In this document: positions 53,128 through 62,707 of the stretch, piece after piece
Layout of the letters: every line of letters begins with the position of its first letter
Position numbering within the stretch: the first letter of the stretch is position 1
Assembly: GCA_020057405.1 (NCBI GenBank)
Contig: JAGVFW010000003.1
Coordinates: 141,893-205,892, forward strand
Length of the DNA: 64,000 nucleotides
From: an archaeon
GTDB lineage: Archaea; Micrarchaeota; Micrarchaeia; Norongarragalinales; UBA97
Reading direction: 5' to 3'
Notes under the pieces: generated by a model
Told to the model about the DNA's origin: nothing
The model's input: only the letters and a program-made list of their open reading frames with translations
Database searches by the model: none
Position numbers and translations under genes: made by a program

Positions 53128-53712
53128 ATGAAAGTAAAAGTAATTGCCAAGGGAAAACAGCAAACAAACGAAAGCCCGCAGACAGCAGAAAAACCAACGA
53201 CAACCGAAAAACCGCTTGCCCTTGACTTTTCCAAAATCACGGCAGAAGAAAAGACCTTCCTCATTAGGTTCCTAATCGCATTCGCCGCGCTCTTCATTGT
53301 CGCAACCCCCCTTCCCCTCACACCACTTCTTGAGTGGATTGCGCACACCGAGGCAGACTGGCTCATCTTCTCGGGAATGCTGGCCTATTCGGATGGCGCA
53401 GTTGTGCACGCTGGCGGCATTGCATTCGAAATAGTCAACGAATGCAGTTCGCTCGTGATGATTGCTCTGCTCGCGTCATTGCTAATCGCAGGCGGGGCAA
53501 AAAGCGACTGGAAAGCGCTTGCAATCGGCATTCCCGTCCTCTTCGCATTTAACCTATTGCGCCTCTTTGCCACAATGTGGGTGGGCGCCACCTACGGGGA
53601 GGCCGCCCTCGATACAATCCACTACTTGCTGTGGCTCGTTGACTCGGCCTTCGTGCTAGGCCTGTGGATTGCGTTTGGAAGAAAAAAGCAAGACACGAAT
53701 GCAGAGCAGTAA
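53128..53712 (+). CDS. Archaeosortase/exosortase family protein (2)
   Basis: FEIVNECSS, FNLLRL, IHY triad; multi-TM; directly coupled to carS. Confidence 0.8.
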   Translation: MKVKVIAKGKQQTNESPQTAEKPTTTEKPLALDFSKITAEEKTFLIRFLIAFAALFIVATPLPLTPLLEWIAHTEADWLIFSGMLAYSDGAVVHAGGIAFEIVNECSSLVMIALLASLLIAGGAKSDWKALAIGIPVLFAFNLLRLFATMWVGATYGEAALDTIHYLLWLVDSAFVLGLWIAFGRKKQDTNAEQ

Positions 53713-53750
53713 GAAGACAATTTATTAGCCCGGCGGCAGTAATCTCCCTC

Positions 53751-54143
53751 ATGTCCTCGTCTGAAATCGGCCGCCTTGACTCAAAGGGCCGCCTCATCAT
53801 TCCTTCCGGTCTGCGCGACTACCTGCGACTCAAGCCAGGCTCGCAAGTTCTCGTCAGCCTCGACGAGGAGCGCTTCCAAATCATCATCACGCCAGCCTCC
53901 GAAAAGAAGCTGGTGCTTATGAAAATAGGCCTCTGTGACAACCCCGGCAGCCTCGCTGCTGCCGCAAAGGTCCTCGCAAGCGAAGGCGTCGACCTTGTCT
54001 CGACCGAATCGCGCTCGCTCTCGCGGGGCAAGACCGCCGAGTGGCGCGTCGTTTGCAGCGCCGGCTCGGTCAAGGACTTCGCCGGCCTGAAAAAAAAGCT
54101 CCTGAAGGCAGGGACGACTGGCTTTTCGGCCCATCACATTTAG
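53751..54143 (+). CDS. AbrB/MraZ-type DNA-binding domain fused to an ACT domain (putative amino-acid-responsive regulator)
   Basis: LDSKGRLIIPSGLRDYLRL (AbrB/MraZ) plus DNPGSLAAAAKVLASEGVDL (ACT). Confidence 0.82.
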   Translation: MSSSEIGRLDSKGRLIIPSGLRDYLRLKPGSQVLVSLDEERFQIIITPASEKKLVLMKIGLCDNPGSLAAAAKVLASEGVDLVSTESRSLSRGKTAEWRVVCSAGSVKDFAGLKKKLLKAGTTGFSAHHI

Positions 54144-54154
54144 TGGGAAAAAAG

Positions 54155-54200
54155 TGGGAAAGCCTTAAATAGCTCCTCCGTCACTAATTGTTTGGGTCAA
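54155..54200 (+). promoter_or_regulatory. BRE/TATA promoter of the his operon leader
   Basis: gggaaag-cc-ttaaata followed by taatt about 15 nt downstream; same architecture as other promoters in the window. Confidence 0.6.
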
Positions 54201-54203
54201 AAT

Positions 54204-54248
54204 ATGGCAAGGAATTTCCTTCACCTGCGGCGCTTCCTCTCAGCCTAG
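54204..54248 (+). CDS. Putative his leader peptide MARNFLHLRRFLSA
   Basis: ATG at the expected TSS-proximal position; CAC (His) codon at 54222; TAG at 54246-54248. Confidence 0.45.
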   Translation: MARNFLHLRRFLSA

Positions 54249-54300
54249 GCTAGCCTCCGTTTCCTTGCCGCGATGCCCCGCAACTTCTTCCCTAAACTGC

Positions 54301-54372
54301 GGCAGCTGTAGTGTACCGGGCGCATTCAGGATTGTGGATCCTGCGGACCGGGTTCGACTCCCGGCCGCTGCC
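54301..54372 (+). tRNA. tRNA-His(GTG)-like cloverleaf in the hisG leader (non-canonical)
   Basis: G-1:C73; acceptor GCAGCTG/CCGCTGC with a 6:67 mismatch; anticodon arm CAGGA-TTGTGGA-TCCTG; T arm CCGGG-TTCGACT-CCCGG. Confidence 0.85.
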
Positions 54373-54395
54373 CTAATTCCGGAGGCTGTCACGAA

Positions 54396-56300
54396 ATGAT
54401 TACAATCGCCATACCCAACAAGGGCACGCTCTCCAAGCCGGCAAAGCTGCTCGCCTCCAGCCTGGGCTTTAGCAACGGAGTTTCCGGCGAACGCGAATAC
54501 TCCGTAGACTCTCCTGATGGAAAGTACCGTTTCCTGCTTGCCAGGGCAAAGGACATCCCGGGCTATGTTGAGTCGGGCTCTGCCGACTTTGGCATTACCG
54601 GCCAGGATCTAGTAGCCGAAGCCGAAGCGAGCGTCGCCGAAATCAAGCCCTTGCCTTTCGGGAGCTGCAAGCTCGTCTACGCCATCCCCAACCAGCCATC
54701 GGGCCCCATCCTGCGCGTGGCAACGTCATTCCCCAACCTCACAGCAAAGTACCTTGAGAGTACTGGAGTGGAGGCGAAAATCGTTCTCCTAAACGGCGCG
54801 GTCGAGGCGAGCGTGGGCGCAGGCATGGCGGACGCCATAGTCGACCTCTCTGCAACAGGCAGGACGCTTGCGGCAAACGGCCTGAAGCAGGCGGGCGTGG
54901 TGATGGAATCAAGCGCAGTCCTCATTGCCAACCGCAAGTACGCAGACACCAACCCTCAAGCGCTAAGGCAAGTGCTGGGGCTCATGCTTGGCGACTTTGA
55001 AATCTTCAAATGCGAGCTTGCAAACCTTGGCGAAAAAGAGCAAAAGCGCATGCTATCACGCAAGGCAGGCAACGAGGCTGCAGTCGAGCAGACGGTGAAG
55101 GAAGTCTTCGAATCAGTTTCAAGAAGGAGAGACGAGGCGCTGTGCGAATACAGCGAGAAGTTCGACGGCGCGAAACTCCAGCCCAAGGCGCTTGAAGTCA
55201 CTGCCAAGGAAATCAAGGAGGCCTACTCGCAGGTAAGCGGCGAGCTCATCACCGCGCTAAGGAAGAGTGCCAAAAATATCGCGCGGTTCGCCAAGAGAGA
55301 AGTCCCCACGCGCTGGGAAATGAAAACTGAAGGCGGGCTGATGGGCAAGCGCATTGTTCCGCTCGATTCCGTCGGCGTCTACGCCCCCGGAGGCACGGCC
55401 GCCTACCCCTCAAGCGTCCTCATGGGAGTAATACCCGCCAAGGCCGCAGGCGTCCCGGAAATAATCCTGTGCACGCCTTGCAACAACCAAGGCAAGTGCA
55501 ACCCCGCAGTCCTGGTGGCTGCAGACATTGCTGGTGCAACGCGCGTCTTCCGCCTGGGCGGCGCACAGGCAATCGCGGCAATGACAATCGGCAGCCGGAC
55601 CGTACCCAAAGTCGCCAAAATCGTCGGGCCGGGAAACGCCTTCGTGCGCGCTGCCAAACTCGAAGCCATCTCGCGCGGCCTTGTCTCAATCGATTCCCCC
55701 GCAGGCCCCACCGAAGTCATGGTCATCGCCGACGAGACGGCAGTTCCAGCATTCATCGCGGCAGATATGCTTGCGCAGGCAGAGCACGGCCCTGACGCCG
55801 CCGCAATCCTAGTCTGCACTTCGCAGGCAATTGGCACTGCGGTCGAGGCCGAGCTCAAAAAACAGCTTACGCTGCTTCCGCGTCGGGAAATTGCAAGAAA
55901 ATCCCTCTCGCAAAACGGCGCCATCCTCATTGCGGCCGACGTTGCGCAGGCAATAGAGTTTGCAAACAAGTACGCACCAGAGCACCTCGAACTGGTTGTC
56001 GAGCGGTCCTTTGCGTGGCTTGAAAAAGTGCGCAATGCGGGTGCAGTCTTCATCGGCAACTACACTTGCGAGGCTGCAGGCGACTACGCTGCAGGACCCA
56101 ATCACGTTCTTCCAACAGGCGGGGCGGCGCGCTCCTATTCCGGCCTCTCCGCACGGGACTTTGTCCGGGAAGTCAACTATCTCAAATTAGAGAAGAGCGG
56201 CCTGGAGGCCCTTAGCAGCACCATAATCGAGCTTGCAAACGCCGAGGGACTAACCGCCCACGGCCGCTCGGCACAAAAGAGGTTCGAAAACTATGCCTAG
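54396..56300 (+). CDS. hisG-hisD: Fused ATP phosphoribosyltransferase (short form) / histidinol dehydrogenase
   Basis: aa 1-200: IAIPNKG, RAKDIPGYV, DFGITGQD, GAVE, DAIVDLSATGRTL. aa 200-634: GVYAPGG, KIVGPGN, PAGPTE, AQAEHG, APEHL, GDYAAGPNHVLPT. Confidence 0.93.
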   Translation: MITIAIPNKGTLSKPAKLLASSLGFSNGVSGEREYSVDSPDGKYRFLLARAKDIPGYVESGSADFGITGQDLVAEAEASVAEIKPLPFGSCKLVYAIPNQPSGPILRVATSFPNLTAKYLESTGVEAKIVLLNGAVEASVGAGMADAIVDLSATGRTLAANGLKQAGVVMESSAVLIANRKYADTNPQALRQVLGLMLGDFEIFKCELANLGEKEQKRMLSRKAGNEAAVEQTVKEVFESVSRRRDEALCEYSEKFDGAKLQPKALEVTAKEIKEAYSQVSGELITALRKSAKNIARFAKREVPTRWEMKTEGGLMGKRIVPLDSVGVYAPGGTAAYPSSVLMGVIPAKAAGVPEIILCTPCNNQGKCNPAVLVAADIAGATRVFRLGGAQAIAAMTIGSRTVPKVAKIVGPGNAFVRAAKLEAISRGLVSIDSPAGPTEVMVIADETAVPAFIAADMLAQAEHGPDAAAILVCTSQAIGTAVEAELKKQLTLLPRREIARKSLSQNGAILIAADVAQAIEFANKYAPEHLELVVERSFAWLEKVRNAGAVFIGNYTCEAAGDYAAGPNHVLPTGGAARSYSGLSARDFVREVNYLKLEKSGLEALSSTIIELANAEGLTAHGRSAQKRFENYA

Positions 56301-57345
56301 CCCTCGGCCCGCAATCCAAGCGCTTTCGCCATACGTGTGCGCCCGCGACCTCTACAAGGAAGCGGACGTATTCCTTGACGCCAACGAGAACGCCTTCGGC
56401 AGCGCAATTGAGTTAGCGGACGCCAGCCTCAACCGCTACCCCGACTCCGACTGCACTGCCCTCCGAAAAGCAATCGCGGACTACTGCGGGACCGACGCGG
56501 AGAACGTGATTGCGGGAAACGGTTCCGACGAAGTGATTTCAATGGCAGTAGCCACATTCGCGGGCGAGGGCGACAACATCGTCACGGTCCAGCCGGACTA
56601 CGCAATGTACGGCGTATCTGCCCGCATTGCGGGGGCAAGCGAACGCCAAGTGCTCCTGGCGGAAGAATTTGCCTTGGAAGTTCCCGCCATCCTGCAAGCA
56701 GTCGATGCCAGGACAAAAATAATCTTCCTCTCGTCACCCAACGCGGGCTCTGGTGCGCCAATTGAGGAAAACGCGGTAAGGCAACTGCTTTGCGAGTTTG
56801 ATGGGCTGGTGTTCGTTGACGAGGCTTACTACGAGTTCTGCGGAAAAACGCTTGCGCCGCTTGTAAGCGAGTACGACAACCTGCTTGTCTCGCGCACGCT
56901 CTCAAAAGCCTGGGGTCTTGCGGGACTGCGCGTTGGCTACGGGATTGCACCTAAGCCGGTCATCGCCGCAATGAGGAAAGTAAAGCCGCCCTACAACATC
57001 GGCACGCTCAACGCGCAGATTGCAACTGCCGCCATCCTCACCGGCCGCCAAAGGATGGAGCAAAACGTCAGGCAAACCCTGGAGGAGAAAGAGCGGCTCT
57101 CTGCAAGGCTCGCGTGCCTTGGCCTTGAAGTCCTTCCCGGCGTCGCTAACTTCATCGTAGCGCGATTTCCATCCAGATTGAGCTCAAAGAAGGTGCAGGC
57201 TGTCCTGGCGCAGGGCCGCATCGTCGTGCGCGACCGCTCGTCGCTGCCGTTGCTTGAAAACTGCATCCGTTTCACGGTCGGAACGCCTGCAGAGAACAAC
57301 GCGATGCTCGCTGCTTTGGAAAAAATAATGGTGCAAAACGAATGA
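56293..57345 (+). CDS. hisC: Histidinol-phosphate aminotransferase
   Basis: LDANEN, NRYPD, GNGSDE, DEAY, RTLSKAWGLAGLRVG. Confidence 0.95.
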   Translation: MPSPRPAIQALSPYVCARDLYKEADVFLDANENAFGSAIELADASLNRYPDSDCTALRKAIADYCGTDAENVIAGNGSDEVISMAVATFAGEGDNIVTVQPDYAMYGVSARIAGASERQVLLAEEFALEVPAILQAVDARTKIIFLSSPNAGSGAPIEENAVRQLLCEFDGLVFVDEAYYEFCGKTLAPLVSEYDNLLVSRTLSKAWGLAGLRVGYGIAPKPVIAAMRKVKPPYNIGTLNAQIATAAILTGRQRMEQNVRQTLEEKERLSARLACLGLEVLPGVANFIVARFPSRLSSKKVQAVLAQGRIVVRDRSSLPLLENCIRFTVGTPAENNAMLAALEKIMVQNE

Positions 57346-57977
57346 ACGGGCGGAAGCCCCTTGCGGGCGTACTGGTTGCCTCCGATGTCGACGGCGTCAT
57401 TGTCAATGGCGACACTATCTTCTCGTTTTTCGAAAGGTATGGCAAGTTTGCCAAAGCCAAAACGCTAAACAAGCGCAAGCCCGGCTCAGACATCACCCTA
57501 GTACTTGTCGAAATCGTGCGGGAAAACAAAGTCACCGAAGAAACGCTCGCGCGGGAAGCCAAGCTCGCCAAGCTCTACCCCGGCGCAAGGCAGTTCTATT
57601 CGGGCCTTGAGGCGCTTGGAGCGCGGGTTTGCCTGCTTACCGCAACTTACGAGCCCATTGCAAAAGGCATTGCCAAAAGAGTGGGGCTCAAAAGGCCAAT
57701 TATAATGGCGACGAAAGTCAAGTCGGCAAGCGGATTGCTAAAAGGAGCATTGGGGACGGCTATGGAGGCCGGCCGCAAGAAATCCGCACTCCGGCAAGCC
57801 TGCAGGCGCACGGGCATTCCCCTTTCAATGACAGTTGGCATCGGCGACTCGCCAAGCGACAGGCTATTCATGGACGATATTGCTAATAGCAGGGGAATGT
57901 GCGCCTGGGTCAAGCAGCCCGATTTTGCTAAAATCAAGAAACAAATTTTGAGAAGATTTGGGGAGGGAAAGGAATGA
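57342..57977 (+). CDS. HAD-superfamily phosphatase, probable histidinol-phosphate phosphatase
   Basis: DVDGV motif I, LLTAT, K, GDSPSD motif IV; lies between hisC and hisB. Confidence 0.72.
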   Translation: MNGRKPLAGVLVASDVDGVIVNGDTIFSFFERYGKFAKAKTLNKRKPGSDITLVLVEIVRENKVTEETLAREAKLAKLYPGARQFYSGLEALGARVCLLTATYEPIAKGIAKRVGLKRPIIMATKVKSASGLLKGALGTAMEAGRKKSALRQACRRTGIPLSMTVGIGDSPSDRLFMDDIANSRGMCAWVKQPDFAKIKKQILRRFGEGKE

Positions 57978-62634: not shown

Positions 62635-62707
62635 GGCCGGTAGCGAGAATCGAACTCGCGTCAGGGGATCCACAATCCCCGATCCTAACCACTAGACGAT
62701 ACCAGCC
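62635..62707 (-). tRNA. tRNA-His(GTG), canonical
   Basis: Reverse complement GGCTGGTATCGTCTAGTGGTTAGGATCGGGGATTGTGGATCCCCTGACGCGAGTTCGATTCTCGCTACCGGCC; G-1, C73, U8/A14/G15/C48 all present. Confidence 0.96.

Follow-up and report, generated by a model that had tools for sequence, protein, structure and literature searches.

In enterobacteria, the hisL leader attenuates the his operon by means of a run of His codons together with terminator and antiterminator hairpins, and tRNA-mRNA co-transcripts, whether they come from tRNA punctuation or from dicistronic units, are separated by RNase P or RNase Z cleavage. To our knowledge, the post-transcriptional control of amino-acid synthesis in archaea is poorly understood. 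Regulatory +1 frameshifting on CUU is already known, and CUU is the classic shift codon of release factor 2 (RF2, prfB) and of Ty1, where it re-pairs one base downstream and a slow codon in the aminoacyl (A) site drives the shift (PMC5009743). The RF2 site is a CUU_U at which the +1 shift is accompanied by an internal Shine-Dalgarno (SD) stimulator, the Ty1 site is CUU_AGG_C with a slow-to-decode A-site codon, and in the ermC leader ketolide-induced frameshifting unfolds the mRNA and permits downstream initiation (PMC5009743). The passages of this 2016 frameshifting review on which we draw name no established natural frameshift sensor of aminoacyl-tRNA scarcity at a sense codon for a biosynthetic gene, and they judge pheL, the nearest candidate, to be incidental (PMC5009743). 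Here we describe the leader of the histidine biosynthesis gene hisG in a 64-kb stretch of DNA (64,000 nucleotides (nt), hereafter the window) that is part of the 1.22-Mb genome of a Candidatus Micrarchaeota archaeon (G000; 17 contigs, 56% G+C). An initial annotation had read in this leader a promoter, a 14-codon upstream open reading frame (uORF1) with one His codon, a 52-nt spacer (54249-54300), a tRNA-His, a GGAGG and hisG, and all of these are indeed found in 54143-54399. When the locus was compared with its relatives, the reading that we came to favour, with moderate confidence, is that the leader is a programmed +1 frameshift which senses His-tRNA and is coupled to the translation of hisG, and that the tRNA-His gene lies inside the shifted frame.

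Candidate frameshift-type starts of hisG in related Micrarchaeia

For the comparison hisG loci were gathered from Micrarchaeia (76, with 72 usable) and from other phyla (94, with 87 usable). The pattern that was looked for at the hisG start is a CTT-CAY in the frame that needs a +1 shift, with the start of the zero frame within 25 codons, and it was found in 19 of the 72 Micrarchaeia loci and in none of the 87 control loci. The order to which the window belongs has 68 genomes, 18 of them with hisG, and all of these were covered. A scan of the contigs of the genomes gave no new Micrarchaeota locus and a scan of metagenomes added L215 and L217, the second of which is near-identical to L007. One further candidate, L012 (G036), has GTT-CAC and another frame break within hisG, and it was set aside as possibly broken.

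In most relatives of the order the layout is the same: an SD sequence and an ATG open a short frame, this frame leads through a purine-rich element to CTT followed by CAC or CAT, and hisG lies in the +1 frame. In these loci hisG has no start codon in its own frame, and the hisG frame resumes at the second base of CTT. Of the 19 loci, 15 have a stop in the hisG frame 12-33 nt ahead of the site, and there is no ATG, GTG or TTG between the two, that is to say, these relatives have no conventional hisG start. By inspection, an SD-like purine run that matches the 3' end of 16S rRNA (...GATCACCTCC) stands ahead of most of the zero-frame starts; none is seen in L175 and L204, and it is doubtful in L010 and L206. 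The purine-rich element that precedes the site ends 3-4 nt before CTT at most sites and reads AGGGAT, AGGGGT, GAGGAT or GGTGGT, and it is a putative partner of the anti-SD in this 3' end. The base preceding TTC is always C, though the codon of the hisG frame at that place stands for Tyr, Leu, Cys, Ala, Val, Ile or His; the presence of CTT in all 19 proximal sites is by construction of the search.

A tree of HisG was made from the 35 Micrarchaeia loci that were long enough, and four frameshift-type loci of family f22 were left out of it. This tree has a clade of 15 rows (support 96/89) that consists only of frameshift-type loci, the window and L215. Since the window and L215 are nested in the frameshift-type clade, their ordinary hisG start would have been acquired secondarily. 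We think it highly likely that in the main clade of relatives the start of hisG depends on a frameshift.

The candidate cassette in uORF1 and the open +1 frame

In the window uORF1 starts about 33 nt past the TATA box and hence near the 5' end of the transcript, and the hisG ATG is 23 nt downstream of the tRNA (Table 1). The initial annotation had remarked that a single His codon is weak for classical attenuation, and this is borne out, as there is one His codon, CAC, among the 14 codons and no intrinsic-terminator-like site was found in 53600-54700. What had not been considered is the context of this His codon, which comprises an SD-like element, CUU, CAC and an open +1 frame and which points to a frameshift sensor. 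The CTT is followed by C and this makes re-pairing one base on, at UUC, possible. Homologous uORFs with an identical Leu-His site are found in L215, L002, L154 and L156, and CTT-CAC after a purine-rich element is invariant in all five uORF1 copies while the flanking codons vary, so that the His codon to which attention had been drawn is conserved in relatives. The A-site codon in these histidine-synthesis leaders is always His (CAC or CAT). The genome uses CAC 14.3 times per 1000 codons compared to 2.4 for CAT, and because CAC is the preferred His codon, slow decoding would arise at it only under limiting histidine or limiting charging.

The +1 frame that would be entered at CTT was overlooked in the initial annotation, as was the second tRNA-His gene of the window on the minus strand. 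It is free of stops across the spacer and the entire tRNA. Its sole canonical start in the window is a TTG at 54265, which has no SD, and no ATG, GTG or TTG comes earlier; likewise, four of the five loci lack any start in the +1 frame ahead of the site. From CTT to the next ATG there are 177, 180, 183, 189 and 192 nt in the window (locus L001), L215, L002, L154 and L156, respectively, and all of these are multiples of 3. The spacers counted for this comparison are 82, 85, 88, 100 and 100 nt in the same order, all of them 1 mod 3, and the trailers are 23, 23, 23, 17, 20 and 20 nt, the sixth being that of L004 from a genome of the same genus as the window (G001), and six out of six are 2 mod 3. 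The first stop of the +1 frame falls at +1, +4, -8, +1 and +1 relative to the next ATG in the five loci. This ATG is that of hisG in the window and in L215, and in L002, L154 and L156 it is that of a second frameshift leader. Over the same stretch the other two frames have 2 and 3 stops in the window, and 2-5 and 1-3 stops over the five loci. A single 3-nt indel separates the window from L215, and it lies in the least conserved part of the poorly conserved spacer. When spacers and trailers were shuffled and the phase was random, a +1 stop within 10 nt of the ATG was obtained in 6-19% of the trials per locus. The frame is thus constrained across the tRNA.

A motif scan of the whole genome gave 14 matches, and a short zero frame combined with a long +1 frame was seen only at the his uORF (1 of 14). 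A strict frameshift scan of the whole genome gave 8 sites, none of which has an SD-like element. There is no sign in these whole-genome scans of a wider frameshift regulon, that is, of other operons of G000 that use the cassette.

Some further features of these leaders were recorded. The sequence CTGCGGC forms a direct repeat of 7 nt, with one copy immediately behind the His codon (54225-54231) and the other across the 5' boundary of the tRNA (54297-54303), and both copies are kept in L215; this repeat may be a trace of tRNA insertion or may be due to chance. The motif CTAGCC(T) recurs after uORF1 in the window (54244-54256) and in the spacers of L002, L154 and L156, and it is found again just before the tRNA in L002 and L156; its reading frame differs between loci, and in the window it supplies TAG stops in both frames other than +1. 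G017 (L003, oriented 574-697) has a uORF that reads MERDFVH-stop (GTT-CAC-TAA) and, some 85 nt further on, a frameshift-type leader; the stretch between the two holds no tRNA. In G025 (L009) a uORF that ends in Thr-His-His-Arg-stop lies far upstream of a conventional hisG start.

The tRNA-His gene between uORF1 and hisG

ARAGORN called the embedded gene as tRNA-His with anticodon gtg at 54302-54373, and its score with the Rfam tRNA model (RF00005) is 43.1 bits compared to a cut-off of 29. In the 64-kb window the only matches to curated Rfam families at the gathering score were three tRNAs, and neither a T-box nor any other family was matched. His is the only anticodon that was found twice among the 28 tRNAs called in the genome. 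The embedded tRNA is therefore an extra copy, and a canonical tRNA-His is present besides the hisG-linked one in G000, G001, G002 and G238. Orthologues of the canonical gene lie away from hisG in many related genomes. In G244, a canonical tRNA-His was not found with a BLAST query or with model R1, but as this genome is 68% complete the missing gene is no proof of absence.

A tRNA-His directly upstream of hisG is also found in G001, G002, G238 and G244 and in the metagenome contig L215. When 163 loci were searched for tRNAs on the same strand up to 700 nt upstream of hisG, six were obtained, all of them tRNA-His and all in Micrarchaeia; the linkage between this tRNA and hisG is specific. G-1 opposite C73 is the identity element of tRNA-His, and both nucleotides are present in all 17 tRNA-His genes compared. 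The hisG-linked copies keep the anticodon GUG, G-1 and C73 in six out of six cases, none of them encodes CCA, and each is 72 nt long and has no intron. Together they make up a single sequence type that stands apart from the canonical genes of the same genomes. In an RNAalifold alignment of the six copies both sides were altered in 4 of 25 predicted pairs, which are compensatory changes, and one mismatched acceptor pair each was seen in 3 of 6 hisG-linked copies compared to 1 of 11 canonical copies. The initial annotation had spoken of a tRNA-His mimic; since every testable tRNA-His identity feature is present, it need not be a mere mimic. From these sequences the embedded tRNA-His is conserved and probably functional, perhaps under a somewhat altered constraint.

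Individual copies show peculiarities of their own. The hisG-linked copy of G001 (L004 1390-1461) has G at position 55 of the T loop and has no G18-G19 in the D loop. Inserts occur in two canonical genes: that of G002 (L245 1500-1593) has one in the D-loop region, and that of G238 (L247 563-674, minus strand) has two, of which the first follows the anticodon loop and the second lies in the T arm.

Proposed mechanism and what weighs against it

A mechanism that would account for this arrangement is as follows. Transcription would begin just past the TATA box at 54164-54171, from a promoter that is probably also under an AbrB/ACT-type protein acting via a GTGGGAA repeat, and ribosomes would initiate at AUG 54204. 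When CUU (Leu) is in the peptidyl (P) site, the ribosome would wait for His-tRNA at CAC 54222-54224. If charged tRNA-His is ample, CAC would be decoded and translation would terminate at UAG 54246, so that the RNA beyond would be free of ribosomes, the cloverleaf would fold and the tRNA could be excised. If charged tRNA-His is scarce, the peptidyl-tRNA-Leu would slip from CUU to UUC, aided by the purine-rich SD-like element 3 nt upstream. The shifted ribosome would then read 59 codons through the spacer and the tRNA and would melt the cloverleaf as well as any pairing over the hisG SD. Upon termination at the UGA that overlaps the hisG AUG, hisG-hisD would be translated by coupling or from the freed SD. 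In the relatives the same slip would make HisG directly. What the sequences show is the parts, their conservation, the specific linkage of the tRNA to hisG, the missing conventional hisG starts of the relatives and the constraints on the frame; we infer from the established cases of +1 frameshifting that a shift takes place here, that its rate follows the supply of histidine, and that it affects tRNA processing and the yield of hisG.

Because translation through the cloverleaf would compete with excision, a transcript would give either tRNA-His or an intact hisG mRNA. This leads to a more far-reaching idea, which we put forward tentatively and regard as rather doubtful, that one transcript has two fates according to histidine supply: when His-tRNA is ample the embedded gene would be excised as a working tRNA-His and the cut would inactivate the hisG message, and when His-tRNA is scarce shifted ribosomes would keep the cloverleaf uncut and would reach hisG. 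If this is true, the leader would be a natural hungry-codon frameshift sensor of an amino acid in which a gene is alternately mRNA and tRNA precursor, and in those relatives that have a second identical site at the hisG start the response would depend on two successive shifts.

Several observations weigh against frameshifting as the device that is used at these loci. Among the relatives, an in-frame GTG or ATG is found 9-18 nt upstream of the site in L003, L005 and L010, and in the four f22 loci (L175, L204, L191 and L206) the zero-frame stop abuts the expected hisG start, so that termination-reinitiation could replace frameshifting there. Among the loci with uORF1, a GTG stands in the +1 frame of L154 shortly before the site, and the five frame-constrained loci represent about three lineages, with a combined chance of roughly 1e-3; with about three independent lineages the frame statistics are modest. 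In the window, the SD-like AAGGAAT matches the anti-SD less well than AAGGAG, AGGGGT and AGGGAT of the relatives, and hisG comes with a good GGAGG and an in-frame ATG of its own, so that its translation would be possible without uORF1 and the coupling could be dispensable or vestigial. In L004 uORF1 is decayed and is without CTT-CAC, from which it follows that uORF1 can be lost; two adjacent His codons are kept in this uORF1 and the hisG frame is unbroken through the tRNA. A tRNA-Leu for CUU was not identified, since ARAGORN at its default gives only the Leu anticodons taa, tag and cag and a relaxed run gives 402 calls that are mostly false. Finally, the dependence on histidine would follow only from the identity of the A-site codon and from the pathway.

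Alternative explanations

A simpler explanation is that the embedded gene is an ordinary extra tRNA-His gene that shares the his promoter, that the uORF is a relic of an ancestral frameshift leader, that hisG is translated from its own SD and ATG, and that only the AbrB/ACT-type factor regulates. The start signals of hisG, the complete set of testable tRNA-His identity features and the decay of uORF1 in G001 all fit this explanation, as do the tree, which makes the window and L215 a derived lineage that lost the proximal frameshift start, and the candidate operator, which is unique to the his promoter in the genome. However, it does not account for what the window and L215 still have in common despite diverged spacers and the 3-nt indel, namely CTT-CAC, the spacing in multiples of 3, the open +1 frame and a stop at the ATG, nor for the same constraints in L002, L154 and L156; by chance such a frame arrangement arises in 6-19% of trials per locus. 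For this reason we consider it unlikely that the leader is just a relic.

The initial annotation had proposed another model, in which the frame does not change and the place of the ribosome, which may or may not have stalled at the His codon, selects among three pairings and thereby decides the folding of the cloverleaf and access to the SD. The pairings themselves are where they were said to be: helix a joins 54206-54214 to 54261-54269 by 9 perfect pairs, helix b joins 54265-54272 to 54298-54305 by 6 Watson-Crick and 2 G-T pairs, and helix c joins 54252-54259 to 54380-54387 by 8 perfect pairs. In 54196-54400 there are 3 position pairs of perfect complementarity of at least 8 nt (one 9-mer, one 8-mer), compared to a mean of 0.32 in 1000 dinucleotide shuffles, of which 2.9% reach 3. 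The minimum-free-energy fold of the same segment pairs the hisG SD region with 54251-54259, which is helix c, and because helices a and c cross they could compete. As duplexes, helix a (uORF 5' end with spacer) and helix c (spacer with SD region) were better than shuffles in the window, with z = -3.05 and z = -2.37, respectively. Helix a also survives in L215 (z = -1.84), where 9-10 pairs are kept and one A-T is exchanged for G-C.

Against these findings stands the fact that the fold of the whole leader is no better than that of shuffles (z = -0.72) and that RNAalifold on the six tRNA-bearing leaders gave the cloverleaf only, with no conserved alternative helices, so that the covariation that had been proposed as a check on helices a-c is seen in the cloverleaf alone. 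Since the spacers align poorly, each locus was also tested alone for the duplexes, and in L002, L004, L154 and L156 the tests of helices a and c gave z from +1.48 to -1.07, none of which is significant. In L215 helix c (z = -0.87) has two flanking pairs broken without compensation, which leaves 6 pairs, and the other four loci do not have it; helix b is missing from L215, the closest relative. A hairpin switch would also leave the spacing in multiples of 3 and the open +1 frame unexplained. We therefore regard such a switch as improbable, although helix c, going by two related sequences, may be relevant precisely in the lineage where hisG gained its own SD. What stands of the model is its more general idea of a leader governed by ribosomes, as the uORF with its His codon is conserved and non-random and the tRNA is conserved between the sensor and hisG; a conserved hairpin switch is weakly supported. 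It is very probable that events over the tRNA and at the start of hisG depend on how ribosomes behave on the uORF.

Lastly, the embedded tRNA could be a cis-acting tRNA-like element that is independent of the uORF and that binds HisRS or a HisZ-like partner or serves as an RNase P or RNase Z signal which sets the 5' end and the half-life of the hisG mRNA, and the acceptor-stem mismatches, the aberrant loops of the G001 copy and the short trailer of 17-23 nt to the next start in all six loci are in keeping with this, but it is very improbable, because all six copies retain anticodon, G-1 and C73, their stems co-vary as in a working tRNA, and the frame constraints would be left without reason.

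Promoter, operon and neighbouring genes

The coordinates of the leader and of the features around it are given in Table 1. In the single fusion protein of the window Pfam finds HisG with 160 bits and Histidinol_dh with 536 bits. The HisG part is of the short form, with Pfam HisG on residues 50-194, and the hisG-hisD fusion is also found in several relatives as open frames of 630-676 amino acids. The HAD-family hydrolase gene that lies between hisC and hisB (57342-57977) is a candidate for the histidinol-phosphate phosphatase.

Table 1. Positions of the his leader and of associated features in the window
Feature	Position	Strand	Remarks
Small gene for a protein with an AbrB/MazE-type DNA-binding domain and a weak ACT-like C-terminal half	53751..54143	+	Pfam
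Direct repeat GTGGGAA-N4-GTGGGAA, candidate operator	54143..54160	+	abuts the TATA box
TATA-like box CTTAAATA of the his promoter	54164-54171	+	read from the sequence; same box at the same place in relatives
uORF1 (MARNFLHLRRFLSA + stop)	54204-54248	+	ATG 54204, TAG 54246-54248, 14 sense codons
Candidate +1 frameshift cassette	54209..54224	+	AAGGAAT 54209-54215 (SD-like), 3-nt spacer, CTT 54219-54221 (P site), CAC 54222-54224 (A site)
+1-frame open reading frame, 59 codons	54220..54399	+	would be entered only by a shift at CTT; TGA 54397-54399 overlaps the hisG ATG (ATGA)
Segment shared by helix c (5' strand, 54252-54259) and helix a (3' strand, 54261-54269)	54252..54269	+	signal confined to the window and L215
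tRNA-His(GUG), second copy, intron-less	54301 (G-1) to 54372 (C73)	+	no encoded CCA; U6:C67 acceptor-stem mismatch
hisG Shine-Dalgarno region CGGAGGCT	54380..54387	+	GGAGG at 54381-54385
hisG-hisD fusion gene	54396..56300	+	634 amino acids; own in-frame ATG at 54396; followed by hisC, a HAD hydrolase gene and hisB
Canonical tRNA-His(GUG), housekeeping copy	62635..62707	-	G-1 at 62707; Rfam 55.7 bits on 62635-62706

The product of the small gene upstream of the leader matches Pfam MazE_antitoxin with 27.4 bits (cut-off 24.7) and ACT with 16.2 bits, which is under its cut-off. A homologue of this gene is directly upstream of hisG in most related loci, and the GTGGGAA direct repeat is kept beside the TATA box in related hisG loci. 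In the 1.22-Mb genome the exact repeat GTGGGAA-N4-GTGGGAA occurs once only, at the his promoter. This AbrB/ACT-type protein is likely to be the histidine-responsive transcription factor of the his operon, either a repressor or an activator, and it is likely that a layer of transcriptional control through this protein and the GTGGGAA repeat exists besides the translational one. The gene and the repeat were seen together in the window (53751-54171) and in loci L002-L012, L154 and L156. The halves of the repeat are 4 or 5 nt apart. Families f1 and f9 have it ahead of the TATA box and L008-L012 have it past the TATA box; the repeat of L006 is a palindrome, and in L009 an inverted copy is found upstream in addition. 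No further AT-rich box is present between the TATA-like box and hisG. A bacterial promoter scan gave 0 matches, and being a bacterial model it is not informative for an archaeal host.

Significance and comparison with known systems

A literature search at the level of titles and abstracts gave nothing on a frameshift at hisG, on a tRNA in a his leader or on recoding in Micrarchaeota. What appears to be new is the use of a His sense codon as the sensor of the histidine pathway, the occurrence of such a site in archaea, and the position of a cognate tRNA gene within the frame that the shift would open. If the proposal is true, it would be a new way for a cell to sense the shortage of an amino acid, and the RF2-like cassette with a His sensor codon, which at least a dozen Micrarchaeota genomes carry where hisG begins and which in six loci occurs together with a cognate tRNA gene in the shifted frame, offers an example that is directly testable. 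There is also a practical side to it: since hisG in these genomes has no conventional start, gene callers are likely to truncate it or to treat it as broken, and a mis-annotated hisG would affect the metabolic reconstructions of the small-genome DPANN archaea.

Like the tRNA-mRNA co-transcripts, the leader described here has a tRNA and an mRNA on one transcript; in the titles and abstracts that were searched, however, we found no described case of a tRNA in a frame that is reached only by frameshifting, or of a tRNA that is cognate to the sensor codon and to the pathway. With hisL it shares a short leader reading frame that would read the supply of His-tRNA to control the his genes, but it has a single His codon, and neither a terminator-like site nor conserved alternative helices were found in it. 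Control through the charging of tRNA-His is also what the T-box leaders of his genes in Firmicutes and Actinobacteria achieve (PMC9413887), but in the window the tRNA is encoded in the leader and not bound by it.

The remaining parallels are with the recoding sites as they are described in the cited passages of the review. In the ermC leader, a shift in the leader reading frame sends ribosomes into the spacer, unfolds the mRNA and frees a downstream start, which is comparable to uORF1, the spacer, helix c and hisG (PMC5009743). The difference is that the inducer of ermC is a drug that acts on the ribosome and not a scarce aminoacyl-tRNA, and that the ermC spacer has neither a tRNA gene nor a stop/start overlap. 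With the CUU_AGG_C of Ty1 and ABP140 in yeast, where the sense codon is 'hungry' and its slow decoding causes the +1 slip (PMC5009743), the leader has in common a P-site CUU beside a sense codon that would act in this way. In those cases, however, a rare tRNA makes the codon slow at all times and the ratio of products is fixed, whereas here CAC would be slow only if histidine or charging is limiting. With the autoregulatory shift of bacterial RF2 (prfB), as the same passages present it, the likeness extends to a short zero-frame reading frame, a P-site CUU that would re-pair with a G:U at the first position, an A-site codon that would be slow to decode and so act as the sensor, and a putative internal SD-like stimulator upstream and, for hisG of the relatives, to a functional protein encoded in the +1 frame without a start of its own. 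Unlike in prfB, the sensor here is the His sense codon CAY and not UGA, what would be sensed is charged tRNA-His and not a release factor, and the host is an archaeon; in the window, moreover, the shifted frame encodes no enzyme; it passes through a tRNA gene and stops where hisG starts.

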